A stretch of 64,000 bases of DNA, taken from sequence record OM870969.1; one strand, written 5' to 3'. This document shows, one piece after another, positions 9,729 through 56,033 of the stretch. How positions within the stretch are numbered: position 1 is the first letter of the stretch; each line of letters begins with the position of its first letter. This stretch comes from Pseudomonas phage vB_Paer_PsCh. The translations under genes were made by a program, and so were the position numbers. The notes under the pieces were generated by a model. It ran no database searches and was not told the origin of the DNA. It saw nothing but the letters and a program-made list of their open reading frames with translations.

Positions 9729-10229
9729 TTGATTACCACCTACTCGCCGCGTGACGTGGTTGTAACTCTCGCTGGTATCCATTCCGTGACAGGGTACGCA
9801 GAGGGAGAGTTTATCAGAATTGTAAAAGATATTAAGCCTTTCATCAAGCACGGATCGATGGACGGAGAAATCGCCCGGGTCTACAACAAGGACCAAGGCT
9901 GGCGAGTAGAGTTGACAATCATGCAGTCCTCGCCGACTAACGACATTCTCTCCATGCTATACAACGTGGACATTGCAACCCGAATGGGAAAATTCCCACT
10001 GATGATTAAGGACACGAAGGGTTCTACAAGCTTCCTAGCTCTGACAGCATGGGTGGAAGACCTACCTAGGGTATCTTTCTCTGGACAACTGGAGACCCGC
10101 ACTTGGATTCTAGGGTGCTCTGAGGTCGCCATGAACATTGGCGGAAACGTCGATCAAAGTTTGGTCGAGCAAGCTATCCTGCTGGGAAGCTCTCTTCTGC
10201 CAGCCCTTACGCAATTCGGAGGCTTCTAA
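9729..10229 (+). CDS. tail tube-like protein (paralog 2), TTG start
   Basis: 166 aa with a TTG start preceded by GGAGG. Clearly homologous to 9130..9654 (TYSPRDVVV.., MQSSPTNDILSMLYNVD). Confidence 0.5.
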   Translation: MITTYSPRDVVVTLAGIHSVTGYAEGEFIRIVKDIKPFIKHGSMDGEIARVYNKDQGWRVELTIMQSSPTNDILSMLYNVDIATRMGKFPLMIKDTKGSTSFLALTAWVEDLPRVSFSGQLETRTWILGCSEVAMNIGGNVDQSLVEQAILLGSSLLPALTQFGGF

Positions 10230-24771: not shown

Positions 24772-25086
24772 ATGACAAGGAAACAAGACTGGCCGCTAGT
24801 TTCAGCAGTCGGGGCTTTGTTTATCTCCCTCCTTGTCTGTATGGCTATTCTGGCTTTCACAGCGATGACTCCCGAGGCTCGGTTTGACTCTGTACGCCAG
24901 ACCTACGAGATTCGAATTAGCGAATCTGAGCGGCGGTATGAACTCAAACTGAACAGACTACAGGATCAGATAAACTCGGCCTCGTACACACAGGATCGGC
25001 AATCCCGTTTGCAATATGAAGAACTCGACTCGCTTAAAAGGAAGATTAGCGAACTTGAGCGGAGAATAAAAGAAAAACAAGAATAA
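24772..25086 (+). CDS. single-pass membrane protein with coiled coil (paralog-like to 24431..24736)
   Basis: 104 aa with a TM helix (LVSAVGALFISLLVCMAILAF) and an Arg/Glu/Gln-rich coiled coil. Last gene before the bidirectional terminator. Confidence 0.4.
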   Translation: MTRKQDWPLVSAVGALFISLLVCMAILAFTAMTPEARFDSVRQTYEIRISESERRYELKLNRLQDQINSASYTQDRQSRLQYEELDSLKRKISELERRIKEKQE

Positions 25087-25089
25087 TTA

Positions 25090-25127
25090 AGCCCCGGAAG
25101 CGAAAGCTTGCCGGGGCTCTTTGTTAT
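25090..25127. terminator. bidirectional rho-independent terminator between convergent operons
   Basis: AGCCCCGG-AAGCGAAAGCTT-GCCGGGGCT hairpin followed by CTTTGTT on the plus strand. Convergent genes end on both sides. Confidence 0.65.
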
Positions 25128-25133
25128 GGGTTT

Positions 25134-25442
25134 TCAGCGGACAACTTGATAAACTTCGCCGAACAACTCCTCAAGTTTCTGCATAACTTTTTTAGCCATC
25201 TTCTTGCGGAGTTTATTAGACTCTGCGGAGGAATGGAGTAGCTTAATGTCTATGGCGTCGCCCCAGTCTATATTCCCGTCCCCGAACAAAACTTTAACAT
25301 TCAGACACGTCACGCCCGAGTCAATATCGACAACTACGCCGGGCATCCGAGCGTTGGTCTTTTCGAATGTCGCTCTCGGAGGGTCTATGTCCAGATTACC
25401 AACCACGACAACCTGCCCTTTCTTAACGTCAGATAGTTCCAT
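25134..25442 (-). CDS. hypothetical protein
   Basis: 102-aa ORF, last gene of the leftward island. Confidence 0.45.
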   Translation of the reverse strand: MELSDVKKGQVVVVGNLDIDPPRATFEKTNARMPGVVVDIDSGVTCLNVKVLFGDGNIDWGDAIDIKLLHSSAESNKLRKKMAKKVMQKLEELFGEVYQVVR

Positions 25443-25452
25443 TAAAACCTCC

Positions 25453-25773
25453 TTAATCTAACCTCATTAGTGTGTTGAACTGATGCCTCAGAGACTTAAA
25501 AGCCTGCGGTCCGTCGTCTTCCGCTCCTTCATGAATGTGGTGAGCGATAAGGTGTATCAGTCCTCTGTCTCCCAGCAAAATAGAGCTAGGAATCTCTTTT
25601 ATCCAAGCTACAAAACAGCAGAAGTGCAATACCTCTGGCATAGAAGCCTTGAAGCTGGAATCGTCCAGCTTCGACAGGCGGTTATACGTGGCTTTGAGAT
25701 CGGGATAACTCAACTCATACGTTGCATAGTCGTCGATGTGCTCATCACCACTCACCATATATTGCAAGCTCAT
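25453..25773 (-). CDS. hypothetical protein
   Basis: 106 aa from the internal ATG (MSLQYMVSGDEH..) with RBS AAGGTG, placed just after the MazG stop. The longer ORF-track version (to 25827) would overlap the MazG gene. Confidence 0.4.
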   Translation of the reverse strand: MSLQYMVSGDEHIDDYATYELSYPDLKATYNRLSKLDDSSFKASMPEVLHFCCFVAWIKEIPSSILLGDRGLIHLIAHHIHEGAEDDGPQAFKSLRHQFNTLMRLD

Positions 25774-25774
25774 T

Positions 25775-26584
25775 CTACACCTTCTTGCCGCCTTCTGCAA
25801 GGCGAGCTTCCCGCTTGTGGTCTGCACGGGTCATGTTGTACTCGATCTTCTCGATCATAGCCCCTGCAACATCCAGACCCCGTACATTCGCATAGTCCAT
25901 GATGCGAATGATAGCGTCGGCCAGTTCCACCTCTTCCATCTTCCGCTCTGGCAAGTGATCGTCCATCAAATCCTTACGGACGCCTTCAGCAGCTTCCGCA
26001 ATTTCAGTGGTAACGAGCATCAGCATATGCAGAGCATCACGTTTAATCGGCTCGCCTGTGACCAGATCGGTGTTCCACTTGCGGTTAACAACCTCAAGAC
26101 CAGTCATCATTTTGTTAAAACCGCTAACAAACTCGAAGACGGACTCTCGTTCGAATAGTTCACCGAACGTCGGCTCTTGATCTTCAACAATTGCAGTACT
26201 GAAAGGCCACTCCATCCAAGCATCGTAGCACTTTTTGATAAGCTCTTGTTCATCAATGTACGAGAAGACACCCTGTTCCTCAAGCTGACTAATAGCTTCA
26301 GCCCCCTCGACCCAGACGCACGTACCAATAAGCCTTGGATCGATTCTCAGAGAAGTCTTGTAGACTTCTTTCCACGACCTCCATCCTACCCTACCATTGC
26401 CAAAATACACAAGGAGTGGCACATAGCCTTCTCGCTTTTCCTGCTCTGGCGTTTCTATAACTACAACAAACGCCGGAACTTTCTCCCCATCTGGACGTTC
26501 AGTTAGTACGAAGTCTCCCAAGTTGATATTCTCCCGACTAGCTGGGCGAAGAGATTCCTCGATATGGTCTTTAACTTTGCTCAT
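25775..26584 (-). CDS. mazG: MazG-like nucleoside triphosphate pyrophosphohydrolase (with N-terminal extra domain)
   Basis: Start taken at the internal ATG (MSKVKDH..) preceded by GAGGAGGAAG. C-terminal half has MazG helices (ALHMLMLVTTEIAEAAEGVRKD ... EEVELADAIIRIMDYA). Confidence 0.6.
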   Translation of the reverse strand: MSKVKDHIEESLRPASRENINLGDFVLTERPDGEKVPAFVVVIETPEQEKREGYVPLLVYFGNGRVGWRSWKEVYKTSLRIDPRLIGTCVWVEGAEAISQLEEQGVFSYIDEQELIKKCYDAWMEWPFSTAIVEDQEPTFGELFERESVFEFVSGFNKMMTGLEVVNRKWNTDLVTGEPIKRDALHMLMLVTTEIAEAAEGVRKDLMDDHLPERKMEEVELADAIIRIMDYANVRGLDVAGAMIEKIEYNMTRADHKREARLAEGGKKV

Positions 26585-26747
26585 TAACTTCTTCCTCCTC
26601 ACAGAACATTTCAAAATAACAATCACAGCATACCAGCATGCCGGCATCGCTTATAATTTCTTCGACCGGGAGAATGCTTCCACAGCATTCACACCCAGCC
26701 CGTTCAACACCGTCTACACAGACCCAAGAGTTCATCTTAACCCTCCT

Positions 26748-27884
26748 TCACTCCTCCTTCAGAAGATACTCGTTGCTAATAGCCTTGAAACTAAAGTCTC
26801 GGCTCATGCTTTTGAATACCAAACCTTCCCGGTACTTACCGTTCAACGCAGACTCGCCGCTAGCCATTTTAATCACAGACTCCATTTCAGCAGGGACTCC
26901 CACATTCCACAGGTAGACAGGGACGTGTTTAATTTTCACTCCTCCCTTGCTATTTAGAGTATTCAAAGTTGCAAGTCGCTCTTCTGGAAGATAATAACGA
27001 CTCTCCGAAATGTTGTAGATATCGTACACAAAGTATTCCGGTTTGTCAACTCCCTCGAAGTTGCCTTGGATATTCGGTGCAACCAGTTCACCTTGAAGGG
27101 CGATATTCAGACCAAACTCCCGGAGACGCTTACCAAGATCAAGCTCTTCAGCCATAGCAGTGAAGTGATTGGAGTCCTTCTTAATCACACGCTTCCAGCC
27201 GTGACCCTTGAAAAAGTTCTTGACCGCAGTGAAGAAGCCGATCTTCTCGTCCTCAAGACGGAAACCTACGTTACGAGAGGCTACACCGGTATCGCCGTCT
27301 TTATGCCAGATGGTGAGAGACGATCCGTCCAGTTTGAAGGTCACTTCGAACTTCTCACCTTTCGTGTAGGCATTCTCGTAGGCCATTTTGATATTCTGTA
27401 CGCGGGCCTGATCCGTTTTCGGGATGAAGTTGGGGAACCCTAGCTTGGAAGTGCCAGTTCGGTCGCCCTTGTTGCCGCCATTGATAGCTGCCTGCTCGGA
27501 CGGCTTTACATACTTCAGGATGCCCATCCGGTCGGTAACGTCTTCGTCTACTTTCGGTTCTGGACTACCGGCTGCATGAACAGGCACGATCAATCCTTGG
27601 CTAAGCTCTTTACGAAGCTTCATGGTCTTGATTCGAGAATACTCTTTTCCACCTTGTTCGACCATATTACGGCCACGCAGGAATTCAAAAATAGGGTTGT
27701 CTACAGGGACCATGGAGTCCACTTCAATGTAGATTGCCAGATCACCGGCCTGATACTCCCCTCGTTTGATTACGCACTGCCAACCACCAACAAGCGCCAG
27801 ATCGAGGCTGTCAGCGTTAGGATGGGTCTTCACATCATCGATACGAACTACTCGGGCAAGTACGCGGTCTTGGGAATTACTCAT
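26748..27884 (-). CDS. ATP-dependent RNA ligase, DraRnl/Rnl5-like (N-terminal OB fold plus nucleotidyltransferase)
   Basis: 378 aa. Adenylyltransferase motif I KLDGSS (VTFKLDGSSLTIWHKD) and a motif V-like EGLVFK. OB-like N-terminus (VVRIDDVKTHPNADSLDLALVGGWQCVIKRGEY), i.e. the DRB0094-type domain order. Confidence 0.5.
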   Translation of the reverse strand: MSNSQDRVLARVVRIDDVKTHPNADSLDLALVGGWQCVIKRGEYQAGDLAIYIEVDSMVPVDNPIFEFLRGRNMVEQGGKEYSRIKTMKLRKELSQGLIVPVHAAGSPEPKVDEDVTDRMGILKYVKPSEQAAINGGNKGDRTGTSKLGFPNFIPKTDQARVQNIKMAYENAYTKGEKFEVTFKLDGSSLTIWHKDGDTGVASRNVGFRLEDEKIGFFTAVKNFFKGHGWKRVIKKDSNHFTAMAEELDLGKRLREFGLNIALQGELVAPNIQGNFEGVDKPEYFVYDIYNISESRYYLPEERLATLNTLNSKGGVKIKHVPVYLWNVGVPAEMESVIKMASGESALNGKYREGLVFKSMSRDFSFKAISNEYLLKEE

Positions 27885-27915
27885 ATGTTATCCTCCTTGT
27901 TTGAAAATTGGTATA

Positions 27916-28149
27916 TTACTTGTTAAACCAGCCGAGGTCAATAGCTCGCTCTAAGGCCAGTAGCAGATTTTCAGCATCTAGAAGGTCACGGATCGCGATC
28001 CAACTGCCGCTGTCTCCCGGTAGACCATCTGTGATATATACAGGTATGTCGCTGTACTCGCTCTTTTTAAGCCCGCAGGCACAGGCTACATTGTCTCCGA
28101 AGACAATCTCGCTGACTTCCCTTGCCTCGTCTCGAATATCAATCTTCAT
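27916..28149 (-). CDS. hypothetical protein
   Basis: 77 aa from the internal ATG (MKIDIRDEAREV..) with RBS AGGAGA. First gene downstream of the leftward promoter. Confidence 0.4.
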   Translation of the reverse strand: MKIDIRDEAREVSEIVFGDNVACACGLKKSEYSDIPVYITDGLPGDSGSWIAIRDLLDAENLLLALERAIDLGWFNK

Positions 28150-32408: not shown

Positions 32409-34271
32409 ATGTCCAAAATGACCGTGGCCCAAATTGCGGCTATGCACGGTATCGATTTGTATTCTGACCACAAGACCGCTTGTCCCCAATGCCGGAAGAA
32501 AGGCGCGGACAACAGCGGAGACAACCTGAAGGTTTATGGGACGGATCGTAATACCGGGGAACACAAAGGTGCCTATTGTTGGGCGTGTGGGTACACCTTG
32601 CTCTCTGAAGAGCAGGAAAGAGACGCCCGGGGAGAAGACGAAGAGGAGTGGAATTTCGTGGGAACTGAATTTAACGCAGAGATCAACGCTCAAATTAAAG
32701 AGCAGTGCTCGTATGATCCGCGTGGTTATCGTGGCCTGTCCAAGGAAACTTGCCAGTATTTCGGAGTGCTACATGGTTTCGACCCGGAGACTGGCGAGAT
32801 TGCAACTCAGCTATATCCTACTACTACTAATTACGAACTCACTGGTTACAAACAGCGGATCATGCCGAAGAACTTCTCTGAGCCTATCGGAGAGACAGGT
32901 AAGGATTGCGAGCTTTTTGGTCAGTTCCGGTTCAAGAATAGCAACAGCAAGAAGGTGCTTATTGTAGGCGGTGAGGTTGACCAGCTATCAGCATTCCAGA
33001 TGCTCAAGGAGTATGACGACCGGCGAGCAGGCGGTAAGAGTGATTATGAACCGACTCCAGTGGTCAGCCCTACTATCGGTGAGAGTGGGGCATGGAAGCA
33101 GCTACAGGCTCAGTATGAGTGGCTAGACCGGTTCGAGCAAATCATTCTCTGTTTCGACAGCGATGACGCAGGACGAGAGGCAGCAGACAAGGCCGCCGAT
33201 AAGCTTCCGAAGGGCAAGGTGTTCATGATGGAAATGAACCGTAAAGACCCTAACGAGTATTTGAAAGCTGGGCGTCAATCGGAGTTTGTCAGTGCATTCT
33301 ATCGAGCCCGTACATGGACCCCTAGCGGTATTGTAGGGTCTGATGCACTCGACGCTCGAATGTATGAAGCTGTTCAGGTTGAGAAGATTCCTCTGCCACC
33401 GTTCGCTAAGAAGCTCCAGAAGGCTATGGCGGGAGGCATCCCTTTGGGCCGGATTGTGAATATCGGCGCTGCATCGGGAATGGGTAAATCTACTGTAGTG
33501 GACGAGTTCACTCTGTTCTGGATTTATAACTCGCCTCATATGCCGGGTACTGTGACTCTGGAATCGGACTGCGGGGAATACGCAATCAAGCTGCTGAGCC
33601 GGAAGGTAGGTGAGAAGGCAGATTTGTACGAGACTGTTGAAGAGAAAGTGGCGTTCCTTGATCGGCATCGTGATGCTCGCTACGACTTGTGGCACAAAGA
33701 AGATGGGAGTCCTCGCTTCTATCTGATCGATGACCGAGACGGAAGCCTAGCAGCCCTCAAGGCTCAAATCGAGCAACTGATTATTCAGTTTGAGTGCCGT
33801 GTTATTATTCTGGACCCGCTTCAGGATATTCTGGACGGATTGAGCAACGAAGAGCAGTCGGTATTCATGCGCTGGCAAAAGGGTATGACCAAGAGCCACC
33901 GAGTGACGTTCATCAACATCAACCACGTCCGTAAGAGTGGTGGTGGTCAGAAGGCTAACTCGGCAGGTGCTGAACTGTACGAAGAAGATTTCCAAGGGTC
34001 TTCGTCCATCTTCAAATCTGGTGCAGCTAACATCCTGATGTGGCGGAACAAGGACGCGGAGAACGAGTTCGAAAAGAACCTGATTAACGTGAAGCTCTCT
34101 AAGTGCCGATGGACTGGCCGCACTGGAATGATGGGCAATTGGTACTACGACGTTGAGACTCATACGATCTGGGACTTGGACGACTATCTGGACCGATATC
34201 CTGACAAGCGCCGTGAGTATGAGGCTTGGATGGCTCAGAAGGAAGAGGAAGGCCGAGACACGGAATACTAA
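32409..34271 (+). CDS. DNA primase-helicase (T7 gp4-like)
   Basis: 620 aa. N-terminal Cys4 zinc ribbon (CPQCRKKG..CWACGY) and TOPRIM-like acidic region. Walker A GAASGMGKST in the DnaB-family C-terminal helicase domain. Confidence 0.85.
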   Translation: MSKMTVAQIAAMHGIDLYSDHKTACPQCRKKGADNSGDNLKVYGTDRNTGEHKGAYCWACGYTLLSEEQERDARGEDEEEWNFVGTEFNAEINAQIKEQCSYDPRGYRGLSKETCQYFGVLHGFDPETGEIATQLYPTTTNYELTGYKQRIMPKNFSEPIGETGKDCELFGQFRFKNSNSKKVLIVGGEVDQLSAFQMLKEYDDRRAGGKSDYEPTPVVSPTIGESGAWKQLQAQYEWLDRFEQIILCFDSDDAGREAADKAADKLPKGKVFMMEMNRKDPNEYLKAGRQSEFVSAFYRARTWTPSGIVGSDALDARMYEAVQVEKIPLPPFAKKLQKAMAGGIPLGRIVNIGAASGMGKSTVVDEFTLFWIYNSPHMPGTVTLESDCGEYAIKLLSRKVGEKADLYETVEEKVAFLDRHRDARYDLWHKEDGSPRFYLIDDRDGSLAALKAQIEQLIIQFECRVIILDPLQDILDGLSNEEQSVFMRWQKGMTKSHRVTFININHVRKSGGGQKANSAGAELYEEDFQGSSSIFKSGAANILMWRNKDAENEFEKNLINVKLSKCRWTGRTGMMGNWYYDVETHTIWDLDDYLDRYPDKRREYEAWMAQKEEEGRDTEY

Positions 34272-34331: not shown

Positions 34332-37046
34332 ATGCAACAACGGTTTGAAACAATCGAGCAATACCTCGAATGGATGGGAAATAACAATTTCACTAATATG
34401 ACTTGGGATATCGAGTCTACGGGCCTGCTGGACGAATCGTCCATCGATTACACTGCAAGCCCCTACAAGATCAAGCCCAGCTACAGTCATCACTGTATCG
34501 TAGTAGAAGAGCACGGCGGTAACATTCTGGCGTTCTACGATGGCCCCACTTACATCTTCGACGGTCGAGAGTACACTGAGAAGCTGCCGAAAGCATCTTC
34601 CATGCTACACACTGAAGAAGTTGTGACTCTCAAGGACTACACTCCGGTAGAGTATATTCACCTGCCGCTGAAAGAGTTCAAGAACTATGTGCTCAAGCGC
34701 AAGATCAAGCGCGTAGTGGCTCACAACATGATTAACTTCGACCTTATGTCGATGAAGCTTGTGGAAGATATGGACTTTACTATCGGCGTCGAGCACAGGG
34801 ATGGCGGTCTGACTACGTGGTCTGCTGACACTTGGATGGGCAAGCAAGTGGTATTCGACGATACCCTCGTTATCTCCAAGACTTGTAACCCTGACCTGTT
34901 CGGCGGTCACAGTCTGGATAAGCTGTCTCGTCGTGCAGGTGGTGACACCAAGATTGACTTCCGTAAGCATTTGGCACCGGATGTTCGATTCCTCGACTTC
35001 GCAGCCGATATGCTCTACTACTGTATCTATGACGTAAAGGCGAACACCGCTGTATGGCATTGGTTGCAGGACCACGAAGATTACCAACTGTCCGACCGTG
35101 ACAACTACATCAAGAATTGGCTGTCCCCGATTCAGTTGGAGAAGAAGGTTGCAGAGATCATCACCTATCAGGAGCACCGAGGGTTTGTTCTGAATGTTGA
35201 TCTCTGTGAAAAAGCTGTGAAAGACTTGGACGCCAAGATGGAAGAGCGTCGGGCCCGGGTGGAACCTGTGCTTCCTCCTCGACCGGCAACCAAGAAATTC
35301 ATGGCAGACTACACTCCACCTGTTCGACAGTTCAAGAAGAACGGGGAGATCACCACTTACCTACAGAAGTTCATTGAAAAGATCGGCGCTCAATTGAAAG
35401 AGGGCGACGACAGAACCATGATCTTTGAGGGTAAGGAGTACAAGCTGCCTCTCCCGGCAGACGTACCGCTGAAGACGGAAATGCCTGCTAAGATCGGGGA
35501 CACAACTCACATCAAGCAATGGCTTATGGGTGAGTTTGGTTGGATTCCATCAGAGTGGAAAGAGACTGATCTGACTGTGGATCAGAAGAAGATCAAGCTT
35601 CCGATGGAAAACATCGTTGCTAAGATCGATCGCTGGCTGGATGTAACGTATAGCACAGCGTACAAGGAAGAGCGGCTGGACGGGTTCGGGGATTACATGA
35701 AGATCACCCCTCGTAGCACCCGCGCGTATGTACGTCAGAGGTTGATTGATCGTGCAAGCAAGGGGGGCTGTAAGGTTCTCACTAACCCTAGCTTCACAAA
35801 GGGCCAAGAGAAAGAAATGTGTCCAGACCTCGAACGCATTGCAGAACAGTTTCCGTTCGCGAAGGATGTGATTGAGTACCTGACCTTTAAGCACCGGCGA
35901 AGCGCAATCCTCGGTGGCGGCATGGACTGGGACGAAATGGAGGATGGAGAGGAGCCGGAAAAAGGTTACCTTGCAAGCATTCGTCAGGACGGCAGGATTC
36001 CCACGCCTGCTGACACTTGCGGGGCTGCTACTAGCCGGATGAAGCACCGGAAGGTTGCTAACGTTCCTCGGATCACCTCGTTGTACGGGGCTGAGCTTCG
36101 AGAGTTGTTTGGGGTTGGAGATGGGTTCTTCCAAATTGGATACGACTTCGATTCCTTGGAAGCACGTAAAGAGTCGGCCTACTGCGATCAGTACGATCCG
36201 ACAAAGGAATACTGTAAGTCACTCATGATGGAGAAGCCATTCGACGTTCACACGATGATGGCTAAGCGTATTTCCGAGATTATCGGTCGTCAATTTAACC
36301 GGTCTCCTGCGAAAAACGTAAAATACGGGTGTACGTACGGTGCTCAAGCTGGTAAAGTGGCAAAAACCATTGGTGCCGATTTGCAAACGGGTCAACTGGT
36401 ATTCGATGCGTTCTGGGATGCAGCATTCCCATTGAAAGCACTGAAGGATGACCTAACCAAGCAGTGGGAGGCCAACGGTAAGAAGTATATTGTTGGAGTG
36501 GACGGTCGCCGAGTTCCTACTCGTTCGGCTCACGCTATCCTGAACAGCTTGTTCCAGAGTGGCGGTGTTATCTGTGCTAAACGTGCTATGGTGATTCATG
36601 ACCAACTGCTGGAGAAAGAAGGTCTGAAGGTTGACTTTTTCAAAGAAGACTGGAAGAACAAGCCGGAATTCTGCCAACAAATGATCGCGTACCACGACGA
36701 AGCGCAGTTGGAAGTAACCGCCAAGTCGGTGAGCTTCAAGATGTTCCCTTGGTCCCTAGTAGGCGGCAAGCCGGAAGGGGAGAAGGAGCGAGAGGCAGCC
36801 GAGAAGGAGTTGAAAGCTCTAGCTCAGGCTTACAAGGACGAACAATTGGCTAGCACTGGCAAGGTGTGGAGTGATATCGCACACTACAGCAAAGGTGAAG
36901 GCGGGGTGTTTGTAGCTTACTGCCGCGCTGGAGAACTTGCCACGAAGGCCGTGAGAGCTGCGGGAGAGTTCTACTCTACTCCTCTGGTGCCTATCGAGCT
37001 GACCGCTGGCTACATCGTTGGTCGATCTTGGAAGGATTGCCACTAA
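34332..37046 (+). CDS. DNA polymerase, family A, with 3'-5' exonuclease domain
   Basis: 904 aa. Exo I WDIESTGL. Pol motif A GYDFDSLEAR, motif B SPAKNVKYGCTYGAQAGK, motif C YHDEAQLEV. Confidence 0.9.
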   Translation: MQQRFETIEQYLEWMGNNNFTNMTWDIESTGLLDESSIDYTASPYKIKPSYSHHCIVVEEHGGNILAFYDGPTYIFDGREYTEKLPKASSMLHTEEVVTLKDYTPVEYIHLPLKEFKNYVLKRKIKRVVAHNMINFDLMSMKLVEDMDFTIGVEHRDGGLTTWSADTWMGKQVVFDDTLVISKTCNPDLFGGHSLDKLSRRAGGDTKIDFRKHLAPDVRFLDFAADMLYYCIYDVKANTAVWHWLQDHEDYQLSDRDNYIKNWLSPIQLEKKVAEIITYQEHRGFVLNVDLCEKAVKDLDAKMEERRARVEPVLPPRPATKKFMADYTPPVRQFKKNGEITTYLQKFIEKIGAQLKEGDDRTMIFEGKEYKLPLPADVPLKTEMPAKIGDTTHIKQWLMGEFGWIPSEWKETDLTVDQKKIKLPMENIVAKIDRWLDVTYSTAYKEERLDGFGDYMKITPRSTRAYVRQRLIDRASKGGCKVLTNPSFTKGQEKEMCPDLERIAEQFPFAKDVIEYLTFKHRRSAILGGGMDWDEMEDGEEPEKGYLASIRQDGRIPTPADTCGAATSRMKHRKVANVPRITSLYGAELRELFGVGDGFFQIGYDFDSLEARKESAYCDQYDPTKEYCKSLMMEKPFDVHTMMAKRISEIIGRQFNRSPAKNVKYGCTYGAQAGKVAKTIGADLQTGQLVFDAFWDAAFPLKALKDDLTKQWEANGKKYIVGVDGRRVPTRSAHAILNSLFQSGGVICAKRAMVIHDQLLEKEGLKVDFFKEDWKNKPEFCQQMIAYHDEAQLEVTAKSVSFKMFPWSLVGGKPEGEKEREAAEKELKALAQAYKDEQLASTGKVWSDIAHYSKGEGGVFVAYCRAGELATKAVRAAGEFYSTPLVPIELTAGYIVGRSWKDCH

Positions 37047-53190: not shown

Positions 53191-54177
53191 ATGCAATTCA
53201 ATATATCGAAGCAACTATGGGTAGCTAAAAGCGAGCGGAAGGGCGACTATAAAGGGACGCTTTTGGCATACATGTCTCAAGTGGACTTCAATAAAGATGG
53301 TAGCTTGGCTGCCAGCTTCAAGAAAAAGCAGCAGACTGGTATGAGCTGGGCAGGTAAGAATGCCGAGACTTGCTTCATAGACAACATCCCTGTCTCGGGG
53401 CATTTCATCGGGGACAGTGTTGAACGCTGGGTCACTGAGAACAAATATTTCCGTGTGACGGACCCTAGGGGCTTTGTTCTAGAGGTTCCTACCGGGAATA
53501 TCTCGACCTTGCTCTACAACTGCACAGTAATCAAGGGAGTTATTCAAGAGCCTTGCGTGTGGGTTCGGATGGGCTCTCAGCACGTTCTACTGCCGGAAGG
53601 CTCCTCTCTCTACAAAGAAGCTGTAAGCTTCGTGGAGCGAAAAGAGTCGGCCAAAACTGTTAAAGATATGGTTGCAGGGGATCGATGCACTCTTCTTAGC
53701 TACGGGACAGAGGAGAAACTAGAGGCTATCTACCTCGGACAGGTGAAGATCACTTGGCACCTCCTAGCTAAAAAGGGCCGGTACTCTAGCCGAGGGTGGG
53801 GTGGAGGTCGGTGGGGTTACCACCATCTAGAGAGGGAACTAGATAGAAAAGAATTCACTGAGAAAGATTCGAAGTGGGTTAGTGTGTTCGCTAAGCCGGT
53901 AGGAAAGCGGTGGAGTATCCATTTTATCCTGTCTCCAAAGGCAACCGACATTCAATCTGGAAATGTACCGGATGAACTTCAAAACCTCGACCTAGTGAAT
54001 GGTGTAAAATGGGAGTACAACGAGAAAGACGACCGCCCATCTTCCTATTACTCTGTACCGGATAGGGTAGTCAAGTGCATCAGTGTAGACGACCCTTCAT
54101 GGGACGATCTGCACAGCTACAAGGAGGTGAGGTGGACCCGGGAATGGACCGTGGTTGGTGCGGAGTGGAGAAAATAA
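53191..54177 (+). CDS. hypothetical protein (stand-alone transcription unit)
   Basis: 328 aa, RBS GGAGGGAAG. Flanked by its own promoter and terminators; Trp/Gly-rich segment RGWGGGRWGYHH. Confidence 0.55.
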   Translation: MQFNISKQLWVAKSERKGDYKGTLLAYMSQVDFNKDGSLAASFKKKQQTGMSWAGKNAETCFIDNIPVSGHFIGDSVERWVTENKYFRVTDPRGFVLEVPTGNISTLLYNCTVIKGVIQEPCVWVRMGSQHVLLPEGSSLYKEAVSFVERKESAKTVKDMVAGDRCTLLSYGTEEKLEAIYLGQVKITWHLLAKKGRYSSRGWGGGRWGYHHLERELDRKEFTEKDSKWVSVFAKPVGKRWSIHFILSPKATDIQSGNVPDELQNLDLVNGVKWEYNEKDDRPSSYYSVPDRVVKCISVDDPSWDDLHSYKEVRWTREWTVVGAEWRK

Positions 54178-54197
54178 AACCCCTATTATTTTTAGAA

Positions 54198-54225
54198 TTG
54201 CCCGGCTCTTGCCGGGCTTTTTATG
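54198..54225 (+). terminator. rho-independent terminator
   Basis: GCCCGGC-TCTT-GCCGGGC hairpin followed by TTTTTAT. A second small GCCCGGGGC palindrome follows. Confidence 0.7.
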
Positions 54226-54400
54226 CCCGGGGCTTATTTTCAAATTATTTTTAGATTTCTGGGAGTTTCGGCCAATATGGGCAATATGAAATTTCTCAGG
54301 AAAAGGCTCAGAATGCTCGTATAAGAGCCGTTCGAGTGTAGGTATGGTGAGCTACTACTTAGCCGTAGAAGGACAGTGTAACGCTTAATAGGAGGGTTAG

Positions 54401-54550
54401 AATGAAGATTGACAACGGTGGCGAATATGCGTATTGGCTGGCGGATATCAAAGAGTTTGTTTCTCAGATGGATGCCACAGAGATCGAGAAGAGGGCTTGT
54501 ATAGCATACTTAATTAGCTGGTATCAGCGAAGAGTACTGCACAGAATTAA
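54401..54550 (+). CDS. small hypothetical protein (49 aa)
   Basis: ATG 54401 with strong RBS TAGGAGGGT. Sits within the non-coding hub; under 60 aa, so not in the ORF track. Confidence 0.3.
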
Positions 54551-54578
54551 ACGGGAGGAATACGAGGCGATCTAAGCT

Positions 54579-54735
54579 AGGGACCGGATGGATTTTTAGG
54601 GACTGGATAGATTTTCACAGACTGCAAAATTGAGAACTGGGCAGATTTTTAGGAACTGGACAGTTTTTCACAGAAGGGGATTTTTCTACAGAGGAATTTC
54701 CCCTGAAATTTAGCCGGATTTCTCAGAAGGGCGGA
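54579..54735. repeat. iteron-like direct repeat cluster
   Basis: Two about 36-bp units, GGATGGATTTTTAGGGACTGGATAGATTTTCACAGA (54586-54621) and GGGCAGATTTTTAGGAACTGGACAGTTTTTCACAGA (54638-54674), plus further degenerate ATTTTTmrG copies. Confidence 0.6.
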
Positions 54736-54737
54736 TC

Positions 54738-54785
54738 GTTAGCAGGCTATCTAATTGGTTAGCAAGCTACCTTTAATCGTTAGCA
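54738..54785. repeat. three phased GTTAGCA direct repeats
   Basis: GTTAGCA at 54738, 54758 and 54779, a 20-21 bp periodicity. Confidence 0.5.
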
Positions 54786-54931
54786 CACTAACTAAAAATT
54801 CCTAGGACGGACCTCAGTTGGCACGAACGTTGCAAGCCCGCACCAGTTTCCCGGGCAGGCGTAGGCCTCGACTATCCGTCGTGAAGGCGATATGTAGTTG
54901 GGGACTCGCACCCCGCGTTTAAGATGCGCCC

Positions 54932-54959
54932 ATTCTACTATGACAGTTCACTTTGTCAA
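54932..54959 (-). promoter_or_regulatory. consensus sigma70-like promoter directed leftward into the repeat hub
   Basis: Minus strand: TTGACA (complement of 54954-59), 16-nt spacer, TAGAAT (complement of 54932-37). Confidence 0.45.
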
Positions 54960-55139
54960 CATTCTTTTTATGGCACAGGTTTTGCAATTGCAATTAGAGT
55001 GCCAACATAAATTTCAGGCTCCTCCGGTGTTTATCTCCGGTGCTCGGCTTCCAGCCTGCGTTGCCCGCATGCCTATGATTATACACAAGCCAGAAAAGAA
55101 GACAAGCAAAAATATAGAGAAAAATCTACATAAAGCCGG

Positions 55140-55169
55140 TTGACACGTTCTTTTTATATAGGCACAATG
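55140..55169 (+). promoter_or_regulatory. possible sigma70-like promoter
   Basis: TTGACA (55140-45) with a weak -10 (CACAAT at 18-nt spacing). Confidence 0.3.
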
Positions 55170-55203
55170 AGCCCACATTCAACGGAACGGCAGGTAAACA
55201 GCC

Positions 55204-55677
55204 ATGCTACATAGTGAAGCCCGGGAGATCGCACTACAGGAAATGGACAAGTGGAGCCTCCTTGAGCAAGGTTGGAAATTCTCGTTCAACCTGCGGTTGA
55301 AGAGGGCTCTAGGGCGGTGCAATTACGCTAAGAGGCTCATAGAACTCAGCTACGATTACGTAGCTAATAACGGGCTTCCCGCAGTACTGGACACCATCCG
55401 CCACGAAATAGCACATGCTAAGGCAGGTCCGCACCATGGGCATGATTCTGTATGGAAAGAGTGGTGCGGATTGATTGGCGCTAAACCTAATCAGTACGCC
55501 AGTACAAAGGACAAAGTAGTCGACTTTCCTTGGCGGCTGGCGATCCGGCACGAAGATGGCACATTAGAGCCGCTGAATCATTTCGGTTTCAGGCGGACCA
55601 ACATGGCGAGAAAACAGGTACGCGGGCGTCCTGAGACGCTGGGCCGTCTAGTTTGGGTGAAGAACGAAAATAATTGA
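55204..55677 (+). CDS. SprT-like zinc metalloprotease domain protein
   Basis: 157 aa. HExxH motif IRHEIAHA within a SprT-like arrangement (GRC..IELS..HEIAH..). Confidence 0.5.
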   Translation: MLHSEAREIALQEMDKWSLLEQGWKFSFNLRLKRALGRCNYAKRLIELSYDYVANNGLPAVLDTIRHEIAHAKAGPHHGHDSVWKEWCGLIGAKPNQYASTKDKVVDFPWRLAIRHEDGTLEPLNHFGFRRTNMARKQVRGRPETLGRLVWVKNENN

Positions 55678-55686
55678 GAAAAAGAT

Positions 55687-55714
55687 GTTGACAGCTTAGG
55701 CCATTCCTGTAGAA
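55687..55714 (+). promoter_or_regulatory. repeated early promoter element copy 1 (TTGACA-16-TAGAAT with GGCCATTC/GAATGGCC palindrome)
   Basis: TTGACAGCTTAGGCCATTCCTGTAGAATGGCCCTCAAGC. Confidence 0.6.
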
Positions 55715-55766
55715 TGGCCCTCAAGCAAAGGGAAACACCCTGAGCAGTCACAAAGGATACATAGAT

Positions 55767-56033
55767 ATGAAAGCGCTTTGTAATCATCGGGCACTCTATG
55801 CGGCTTACAACCGCAGCGAGATTGATCGAGTTGCATTAGACCTGAACCGTTATTTTCCTATCGAGAAAGATGACGAATGGGAAGACGGACCATACATGTA
55901 TCGTCGCCGCACCTATCTGGTGAAGCATTCGAAGGGCACAGCCCGGTGGCACAGTCTTTACTGTAATGGGACTGTCCAAGGCGTAGGCGTCGTCTTCGAC
56001 GTAAAGTCGGGCGAACCTTTCCGCACAGCATAA
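55767..56033 (+). CDS. hypothetical protein
   Basis: 88 aa, RBS AAAGGA. Confidence 0.45.
   Translation: MKALCNHRALYAAYNRSEIDRVALDLNRYFPIEKDDEWEDGPYMYRRRTYLVKHSKGTARWHSLYCNGTVQGVGVVFDVKSGEPFRTA

Follow-up and report, generated by a model that had tools for sequence, protein, structure and literature searches.

The closest described counterpart of the locus treated here lies in the Pseudomonas aeruginosa phage PAK_P4 (NC_022986). RNA sequencing (RNA-seq) of PAK_P4 revealed 17 antisense RNAs, most of them within structural genes and with a stronger signal in early infection, and the RNA-seq-based annotation includes the minus-strand non-coding RNA (ncRNA) PAK_P4as16 (as16), promoter_03, and the rightward promoter_04 (Blasdel et al. 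2017, PMC5563952). In a review from 2025, the function of as16 is given as undetermined (PMC12197685). A phage precedent for the use of sigma-54 promoters is given by the Pseudomonas phage YuA (PMC10914365), and the sigma-54 holoenzyme binds promoters stably in an inactive state without initiation (PMC4591121). Here, the region corresponding to as16 was analyzed in a stretch of 64,000 nucleotides (nt) of Pseudomonas phage vB_Paer_PsCh (OM870969.1), referred to in its full length as the window. The region, termed the hub, covers about 1 kb (54180–55200) and was assigned by blastn to Pakpunavirus (PAK_P1-like P. aeruginosa myoviruses). We tentatively interpret it as an early ncRNA and promoter control locus coupled to the host sigma-54. 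This interpretation, which we regard as possible and not yet as probable, is favored because it covers the observed transcript, two conserved promoters, the covariation of an RNA structure, a cluster of sigma-54 boxes, and their phase-locked spacing. The leftward promoter P1 and as16 are already known from PAK_P4. In the searchable literature, no paper was found that ties Pakpunavirus-type phages to rpoN or describes the hub; its conservation across genera, the sigma-54 box cluster with a face-to-face pair, the second leftward promoter P2 with its covarying 5' RNA, and the palindromic nature of the GTTAGCA units were not found described there.

Aligned to the window, as16 of PAK_P4 extends over approximately 54797–54997, promoter_03 over 54931–54958, and promoter_04 over 55139–55160. 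Promoter_03 corresponds to P1, a leftward early sigma-70 promoter on the minus strand (54932–54970) with the −35 box TTGACA (54959–54954), the −10 box TAGAAT (54937–54932), an A-rich UP-like tract (54960–54970), and a predicted start at about 54924–54925. Because the PAK_P4 annotation maps onto P1, P1 is a recognized promoter, and a leftward transcript exists in a close relative. The initial annotation, made from the sequence alone, had called this TTGACA-16-TAGAAT promoter perfect; it is present at 54959–54932, matches the consensus at 11 of 12 positions, and is the top-scoring site of a 5-kb promoter scan. Its −10 context GTAGAATGG is that of the phage's repeated early sigma-70 promoters. 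P1 is conserved, with a varying spacer, in the phages EM, phiPMW, SYP, NoPa, Bitten, and ventosus and in the contigs L111, L142, and L148 (numbers with L denote records used for comparison). The homologous PAK_P3 hub lacks P1.

The as16-type leftward ncRNA of the window is predicted to comprise about 135 nt (54790–54925, minus strand), from a start at about 54925 to a 3' U-run at 54794–54798 (plus-strand numbering). It contains a 5' hairpin GGGG/CCCC (54900–54914) and a hairpin GCCCG/CGGGC (54836–54856), and its region is about 98% invariant among 16 Pakpunavirus-type sequences. In EM, one compensatory change converts GGGG/CCCC to GGAG/CUCC, and an altered loop sits on the retained GCCCG/CGGGC stem. 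That the leftward promoter might produce a non-coding RNA had been proposed initially as an alternative, and this is supported by as16, for which locus, strand, and promoter are identical. The further suggestion of an antisense RNA to a small open reading frame (ORF) is not supported, as nothing is annotated on the plus strand opposite as16 and the small ORF lies beyond its annotated 3' end; the statement that the leftward promoter has no leftward ORF to express was correct. The annotated ends of as16 are round numbers (a 201-nt feature), and it is antisense to no annotated gene. None of P2, the conserved 5' block, the sigma-54 boxes, and the repeat arrays appears in the PAK_P4 record.

The hub belongs to the early, ORFan-rich part of the genome that was described in PAK_P4 (PMC5563952), and lies to the right of the replication and nucleotide genes. 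These encode a T7-type primase-helicase (32409–34271), a PolA-type DNA polymerase (34332–37046), an exonuclease, thymidylate synthase, and ribonucleotide reductase. The hub is carried by 126 Pakpunavirus-type phage records, the majority of which match across the full query with 87%–98% identity (blastn). Its core was also found in Nankokuvirus, Plaisancevirus-type, Otagovirus-like, and further phages. Overall, at least six phage lineages with hosts from five Pseudomonas species (P. putida, P. syringae, P. protegens, and P. plecoglossicida besides P. aeruginosa) possess a hub, as do metagenomes. By blastn, window positions 54954–55098 matched 115–145 nt of phiPMW (P. putida) and of vB_PpS_SYP (SYP; P. 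plecoglossicida), in DNA that carries no annotation in either phage. Pattern scans, an nhmmer profile, and blastn revealed further hubs in PAK_P3 and KPP10-type Nankokuviruses, ventosus (P. syringae), NoPa/KoPa (P. putida), Bitten (P. protegens), two IMG/VR phages, and several soil-metagenome contigs; a first 15-mer scan of viral contigs yielded chance matches for the most part. The order of elements from left to right is common to all lineages: the terminator of the upstream operon, three to four direct iterons, two to three dyad repeats, a variable GC-rich segment, P1 (absent in Nankokuvirus), a TGGCA-type palindrome, the conserved block, the second leftward promoter, and a rightward early promoter.

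The genes flanking the hub are unrelated from lineage to lineage. On the left, a Zn-ribbon protein, membrane proteins, or other ORFans are encoded, and on the right DUF7449, SprT-like, or other proteins. Because the non-coding island stays while its neighbors turn over, the hub is not simply the control region of one flanking gene, and its survival of this turnover in phages with hosts from five Pseudomonas species makes it very likely that the hub is essential, either in cis or via its RNA. Among the 16 Pakpunavirus-type sequences, the non-coding part 54590–54930 is the best-conserved part of the locus (majority fraction about 0.98); the small ORF and the flanking genes reach 0.68–0.88. As judged from these comparisons, the hub is older than the genus and under strong selection. 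The possibility that the hub was copied from a promoter or upstream activating sequence of the host was rejected, since a search of 185,579 genomes with the pattern of the conserved block gave chance matches only, none in Pseudomonas, and the block matched no plasmid; it had no match on any Pseudomonas chromosome either. Within the window, the block has no second copy. In SYP-like genomes, a degenerate second copy of the module is present (L164, 10094–10152) with a P1-like promoter, a TGGTAT-N5-TTGCT box, and a truncated block; a small leftward gene for a membrane protein is driven there by the P1-like promoter (TTGACC-16-TAGAAT). For phiPMW, blastn also indicated a second place for the module. 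Recent GenBank records (JG003, L001 3654–4041; Adele, L134 730–1258; Bitten, L203 524–1014) fill the hub with hypothetical proteins of 28–67 amino acids on both strands. These predictions run across the sigma-54 boxes, P1, P2, and the structured block, and gene calling has almost certainly produced them in error.

The second leftward sigma-70 promoter, P2, was predicted on the minus strand at 55078–55105 (TTGTCT-16-TATAAT with an upstream TG) with a start at about 55071. In 11 lineages, a −10-like hexamer (TATAAT, TACAAT, TAGAAT, CATACT, TATTCT, CATTCT, or CATTAT) is located 7–9 nt upstream of an invariant GCGGG. Because of this distance, the conserved block begins at the predicted +1 of P2. 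The block covers 73 nt (54999–55071, minus strand) and contains a stem-loop (55067–55038) composed of the lower stem CGGGC/GC-CCG, the upper stem GGCU/AGCC, and an apical GGA, followed by an invariant GGAGAYAAACA. An 81-amino-acid ORF in this DNA seemed conserved at the amino acid level in comparison to phiPMW. A protein-coding block was ruled out by a 2-nt indel in L111 and by three broken Pakpunavirus copies, two with a frameshift and one with a stop, in agreement with the initial view that this ORF is spurious. The DNA on either side of the indel is conserved, and because of the indel the block is regarded as non-coding. Its transcription would start at P2, whose −10 box is conserved in the 11 lineages; no start site was listed there for PAK_P3, and the as16 annotation of PAK_P4 reaches about 54997, upstream of the P1 start and short of 55071.

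A covariance model (R1) built on the minus-strand 73-mer (window 55071 to 54999) matched 31 hub loci with E values from 1e-11 to 1e-24, plus a degenerate second copy in one contig; it defines a new phage RNA family and can be used for searches. In the covariation test, for which the alignment had been fitted to R1, 93% of the cells of the stem-loop were paired, five of nine pairs had changed on both sides, and 0 of 500 shuffles reached the covariation score. When the partner columns were slid as a control, pairing decreased to 19%–41% and covariation was lost. By eye, at least seven upper-stem variants were distinguished (GGCU/AGCC, GGUC/GACC, GGCG/CGCC, GGCC/GGCC, GCGC/GCGC, GUAC/GUAC, and GAC/GUC), with loops of 3–9 nt that contain GGA in every case. 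Two genuine U·G cells (EPA1 type and NoPa) favor the minus strand, since they would be C·A mismatches on the plus strand; no cell favors the plus strand.

A search with Rfam cmscan (E ≤ 10) of 53500–56000 returned only two sub-threshold terminator-like matches at 54170–54224 and no RsmY, RsmZ, CsrB, tRNA, or 6S RNA. ARAGORN found no tRNA in the window. A tRNA or tRNA remnant was ruled out by ARAGORN and the Rfam tRNA model, and the block has neither a T-arm nor a 3' acceptor strand. The start of the P2 RNA (GCGGGCA..GAGCACCGGAG) superficially resembles a tRNA 5' half, and the pattern CTCCGGTGCT-N-CTGCGTTGCC also matches a tRNA gene in an unrelated high-GC IMG/VR contig (L127, about 9840–9920). 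The first 75 nt of the P2 RNA contain 32%–41% G. The 73 nt of the block hold two to five GGA and almost no UCC. This motif count, together with an apical-loop GGA that is kept in every lineage while the stem covaries, would fit a decoy RNA whose GGA hairpin and GGAG motifs sequester an RsmA/RsmN-like protein, or a nut/put-like polymerase-modifying element. We consider either function very improbable. The number of GGA motifs does not exceed that expected from the G/A-rich composition (P 0.12–0.79), by which an RsmA sponge was rejected; no Rfam family was matched, the hairpin-loop GGA of as16 is lost in EM, and there is no leftward gene for an antitermination element to serve.

The −24/−12 consensus of sigma-54 promoters is TGGCAC(G)-N4-TTGCW. 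In the 64 kb of the window, exact matches to TGGCAC-N5-TTGCW occur three times, all within the hub, and six matches were obtained with one mismatch allowed (2.0 expected). Box A (TGGCACGAACGTTGCA, 54819–54834, plus strand) represents the exact consensus and is located within the as16 region. Boxes B (54971–54986, plus strand) and C (55004–54989, minus strand) form a palindrome (54971–55004) with the halves TGGCAC-N5-TTGCAA and TTGCAA-N5-GTGCCA. They overlap face-to-face and, therefore, cannot both be occupied. Across 20 hubs from at least six lineages, the offsets from the conserved block are fixed, with box B (+) at −57 and box C (−) at −39/−40. Box C is kept in every one of these hubs except L157, and box B is lost in PAK_P3, L141, and L142. 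The third box varies: it is box A (+) at −209 in Pakpunavirus, where all copies keep it, as does EM; box D (+) at +97 to +110 in phiPMW, SYP, PAK_P3, and L148; and a minus-strand box at a position equivalent to A in ventosus, NoPa, and Bitten. The hexamers in the 20 hubs are invariant save for C/T at position 6, whereas the 5-nt spacers are free even within the genus (e.g., AGGTT, AGTCT, AAGGA, and GGGCT in box B; TCTAA, GCTAA, GTTAA, and GTAAA in box C). Invariant hexamers with varying spacers are typical of a bipartite protein-binding site under selection. A function of the palindrome as an RNA hairpin or terminator was rejected: wobble pairing is confined to the plus strand in one variant and to the minus strand in another, and neither strand has a U-tract.

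The center of the palindrome (54987.5) is located between P2 and P1; counted from the start of P1, it lies about 62 base pairs (bp) upstream. Box B is separated from the −35 box of P1 by 9–11 nt in nine lineages and by 20–21 nt in EM and ventosus, where 10 nt are inserted. The preserved helical phase suggests that a factor bound to the palindrome interacts with the polymerase at P1. Such binding could also act at the DNA level alone. The boxes would then not be promoters but high-affinity parking sites of the host sigma-54 holoenzyme. As roadblocks, they would part two early operons and set the limits of the leftward RNAs; as a sink, they would titrate scarce sigma-54 while the phage genome is copied. 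This is in line with the two to four consensus boxes per hub in most lineages, with their interchangeable orientation, with the lack of a sigma-54-type start site in PAK_P3, and with the stable binding of the holoenzyme without initiation (PMC4591121). The longest rightward read-through reads in PAK_P3 also stop within the hub (50787, 50872, and 50897), each of these ends being a single observation. We nevertheless regard a trap or insulator as quite unlikely. An efficient block at box A is argued against by the annotated as16, which extends past this box, the 80-fold induction of the host rtc operon in PAK_P3 infection (PMC4933390) does not fit a sigma-54 sink, and there is no precedent for such a device.

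To the left of box A, two repeat arrays are located. Two direct repeats of about 36 bp had been noted initially (54586–54621 and 54638–54674). They are present, with 90% identity across 31 nt (54591–54621/54644–54674), and resolve into four 19-nt direct iterons on the plus strand (54581–54672; starts 54581, 54600, 54634, and 54653) with the core ACTGGAYAGWTTTTYA at 54583, 54602, 54636, and 54655 (zero to two mismatches). Every other site in the 64 kb has at least three mismatches to ACTGGAYAGWTTTTYA. Degenerate ATTTTT(C/A) copies trail the iterons as far as about 54730. The iteron family also occurs in EM, PAK_P3, L142, L148, ventosus, NoPa, and Bitten. The three GTTAGCA repeats at 54738, 54758, and 54779, with their spacing of 20 and 21 bp, were likewise found as described, and are in addition palindromic. 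They form three 14-bp operator-like units GTTAGC-NN-GCTAAC (54738–54751, 54758–54771, and 54779–54792; centers 20 and 21 bp apart), each with one mismatch; all other sites of the window have two or more. In EM, two of the three units are perfect palindromes. This family is also present in L142, ventosus, NoPa, and Bitten, and the Plaisancevirus-type hubs contain CATTCTCA-type repeats in place of the palindromes. The three palindromes and four iterons are candidate activator arrays 50–265 bp upstream of box A. An adjoining gene was rejected as the source of the repeat-binding protein, since the left and right neighbors are unrelated between lineages; they are ORFans without Pfam domains. In SYP, the gene immediately left of the hub (L131, 578–1147) has the annotation of a DNA-binding domain protein, but its similarity to HNH homing-endonuclease families (phrog_953) is confined to their C-terminal part, which suggests a mobile element inserted beside the hub.

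According to the control-locus interpretation, tandem host sigma-70 promoters would fire leftward into the hub, P2 from about 55071 and P1 from about 54925. The first 73 nt of the P2 RNA would fold into the conserved stem-loop with the GGA apex, and P1, an early-class promoter with a UP-like tract, would make the as16 RNA seen by RNA-seq in PAK_P4. Three consensus −24/−12 boxes for the host sigma-54 RNA polymerase are interleaved with these promoters, boxes B and C between P2 and P1, and box A within the as16 gene and facing the opposite way. We infer that sigma-54 holoenzyme may be parked on the boxes as a poised closed complex and may thereby modulate the sigma-70 transcription of the hub ncRNAs. 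With an enhancer-binding activator, boxes B and A might fire antisense transcripts against the 5' domain (approximately the first 75–80 nt) of the P2 RNA and of as16, respectively. In other genera, transcripts from box D would enter the rightward early operon. The GTTAGC-NN-GCTAAC palindromes and the iterons would serve as binding arrays for one or more regulators. Of this scheme, the sequence elements with their conservation, the covariation of the RNA, and, in a relative, as16 itself are observed; the occupancy by sigma-54, the activity of P2, the sense/antisense logic, and the binding to the repeats are deduced.

Several results weigh against this interpretation. In PAK_P3, ONT-cappable-seq in lysogeny broth (LB) detected no transcription start site (TSS) on either strand between 48439 and 51049, and the sole TSS listed at the hub is that of the sigma-70 promoter P035 at 51049. 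Starts were predicted at about 50786 (−) and 50972 (+) for the boxes and at about 50880 (−) for P2. A start about 12 nt past the GC dinucleotide of a sigma-54 box is not found at any box in the published PAK_P3 data. This absence is the main weakness of any promoter reading of the boxes or P2. The ONT-cappable-seq pipeline loses reads shorter than about 80 nt, as stated by its authors. Enhancer-dependent promoters are silent without their signal, and in enterobacteria the rtc operon is sigma-54-dependent. A role of the boxes as RtcR-responsive promoters was rejected, because no TSS appears at them in the PAK_P3 system despite the 80-fold induction of rtc. Neither an enhancer-binding protein nor a matching upstream activating sequence was identified; for a phage-encoded enhancer-binding protein, the AAA+-annotated, ClpV-like PAK_P3 gp127, the sole protein tested, had no Pfam hit. 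The strand of the third box switches between lineages, which fits binding better than directional promoter use, and the antisense logic fails in PAK_P3 and in ventosus-type hubs. On the RNA side, no target or function is known for any hub RNA, the stability of single-sequence folds of hub RNAs is ordinary (z −1.5 to 0; −0.14 for as16), and the terminator scan showed no canonical terminator for as16. A cross-genus as16 structure was rejected, as the alignment with the ventosus-type segment was unreliable and the covariation term unfavorable.

The arrangement of the hub also resembles a transcription-primed replication origin, as which it had first been regarded. P2 and P1 would send host RNA polymerase into gene-free DNA, which is compatible with the control-locus interpretation. 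As a mechanism, the G-rich 5' RNA could form an R-loop or primer that is extended by the T7-type replisome, while iterons and palindromes organize or unwind the DNA. We consider an origin of this kind rather unlikely. Two tandem leftward promoters without a leftward gene speak for an origin, as do a single, strongly conserved non-coding copy per genome that is kept despite the turnover of flanking genes, direct iterons common to several lineages, and the G-rich 5' part of the P2 RNA. The phage encodes a T7-like primase-helicase and PolA and no recognizable initiator. For PaP1 and K8, the published proposals place the origin at the genome ends and were derived solely from GC skew (PMC3652863, PMC4773840).

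Of the initially claimed promoter transcribing into repeats, the direction stands: both P1 and P2 aim at the arrays, and as16 exists in PAK_P4; the annotated as16 3' end at about 54797 lies short of them. The AT-richness is modest, with 35%–45% GC in 60-nt windows (minima 35%–38%) compared with about 49% in the genome. There is no cluster of DnaA boxes, the single one-mismatch DnaA-box-like site in the hub corresponding to the chance level. A cumulative GC-skew analysis, suggested at the outset for the complete genome and made here on the window, showed no inflection at 54–55 kb. The PAK_P3 hub has neither P1 nor a leftward TSS, no similarity to plasmid replicons was found, and there is no adjacent initiator gene, the neighbors being unrelated ORFans. 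An origin would also leave the sigma-54 boxes and the covarying stem-loop with its fixed GGA apex unexplained. The sole skew turn of the window lies at 25000–28000, where the skew is sharply negative (−0.13 to −0.26) before it becomes positive for the rest; it coincides with a short block of minus-strand ORFs (25775–26647 and 26748–27884). Separate from the hub, PAK_P3 has a long gene-free stretch (L133, 18820–19740) with many ATTGTGTAAC repeats, where gp113 was taken out of the annotation because the genome terminus is predicted there.

At its left end, the hub is bounded by the intrinsic terminator of the upstream early operon (54200–54224, plus strand), which was detected by the terminator scan and is annotated in PAK_P4 and EPA1. 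Its stem (54200–54217) and the T-run TTTTTAT are located where the initial annotation had placed a terminator. Two ATTATTTTTAGA(A/T)TT copies, at 54185 and 54244, lie one on either side of it. The following AT-rich non-coding segment (54230–54310) is near-invariant in 16 Pakpunavirus-type hubs (majority fraction 0.95–0.98, compared with 0.68–0.88 in flanking coding DNA) and is kept in part in EM. It holds the direct repeats CAATATG/GCAATATG with copies 10 bp apart; no obvious promoter for the small ORF was seen in this stretch. This ORF had been described as encoding 49 amino acids. It exists, but encodes 57 (54402–54575, plus strand; PAK_P2 gp091/phrog_8175), with the Shine-Dalgarno sequence AGGAGGG (54390–54396) 5 nt upstream. 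PAK_P2 and JG003 have this ORF annotated, and of 15 Pakpunavirus copies, 14 are intact. PAK_P4 (L003) carries an in-frame stop (…EKRAW*AYL…), which is why its record lacks the annotation. In the other copies, the C-terminal 19 residues are invariant and the N-terminal half is strongly variable. Unrelated ORFs occupy the slot in EM, PAK_P3, ventosus, NoPa, and Bitten, without conservation beyond the genus. The ORF probably encodes a real, fast-evolving small protein.

At the right end, the promoter scan identified the rightward sigma-70 promoter TTGACA-17-CACAAT (55140–55168, plus strand), which corresponds to PAK_P4 promoter_04 and belongs to the SprT-like gene (55204–55677). It occupies the slot of sigma-54 box D (TTGACACGTTCTTT here, TTGGCACGTTCTTTGCT in phiPMW). 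The sequence TTGACACGTTCTTTTTAT...CACAAT aligns with the consensus box TTGGCACGTTCTTTGCTACGCGT of phiPMW (L004, 3171–3186), SYP (L131, about 1685), and PAK_P3 (L133, 6947–6962). From this alignment, it looks as if a G-to-A change had turned box D into the −35 element of a sigma-70 promoter in the course of evolution. Beside the hub, the SprT-like gene represents an accessory insert. In EPA1 (L005, 2519–2788), an 89-amino-acid gene starts from the same ATG in its stead, and in NoPa (L202, 983–1468) a SprT-like gene is again found beside the hub. DUF7449 directly follows the hub in PAK_P3 and SYP; in the window, the DUF7449 gene is located at 55767–56033.

Pakpunaviruses and their relatives are leading therapeutic phages whose early control circuits and replication origin are still unmapped, and the hub is the most conserved non-coding DNA of their hypervariable early region. 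A stronger version of the control-locus interpretation, in which the hub is a clade-wide module of virulent phages that engages host sigma-54 through a palindromic RpoN box pair with satellite boxes, wired to two early ncRNAs and regulator arrays, appears rather improbable to us. Such a module would let the phage sense or exploit the state of host sigma-54 and its enhancer-binding proteins, for example in nutrient or RNA-damage signaling, with altered early transcription or licensed transcription-primed replication at the hub as its output. If the boxes are functional, these phages would join the very few lytic phages that engage the enhancer-dependent sigma factor of the host, and theirs would be the first such case in which two boxes are paired face-to-face. 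The receptor of Pakpunavirus-type phages is lipopolysaccharide, not pili or flagella (PMC4773840, PMC5992289). Therefore, rpoN mutants should still adsorb the phages, which makes the interpretation directly testable.

In comparison with sigma-54 promoters such as glnAp2, Pu, and P015 of YuA, the hub differs in the face-to-face orientation of its box pair, in one box that flips strand by lineage, and in having no known activator and no TSS at the boxes in PAK_P3. It shares with them the exact bipartite −24/−12 consensus TGGCAC(G)-N4/5-TTGCW at fixed spacing, and its arrays of dyad sites, which are spaced by about two helical turns and lie 60–100 bp upstream of box A, resemble enhancer sites. 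The proposed opposition of a structured 5' RNA from a sigma-70 promoter and a potential antisense transcript (box B against the P2 RNA, box A against as16) is reminiscent of RNA II and RNA I of ColE1. Unlike in ColE1, the putative antisense promoters of the hub are of the sigma-54 type, and the logic is absent in PAK_P3 and reversed in ventosus-type hubs. The lambda nut boxB and HK022 put elements and the GGA hairpins of RsmY/RsmZ differ from the P2 RNA, which has no Rfam match, no downstream leftward gene, and no GGA enrichment; common to all of them is a short stem that covaries and bears a conserved, purine-rich loop, near the 5' end of an early transcript. The primary origin of T7 consists of two tandem promoters followed by an AT-rich stretch. 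Compared with it, the hub, which is known here from its sequence, contains host sigma-70 promoters in place of phage RNA polymerase promoters, is weakly AT-rich, and has no initiator gene next to it. With the T7 primary origin (phi1.1A/B) and with iteron origins such as lambda ori, the hub has in common tandem promoters directed into a gene-free region, direct 19-nt repeats, and a phage that encodes a T7-type primase-helicase and PolA.

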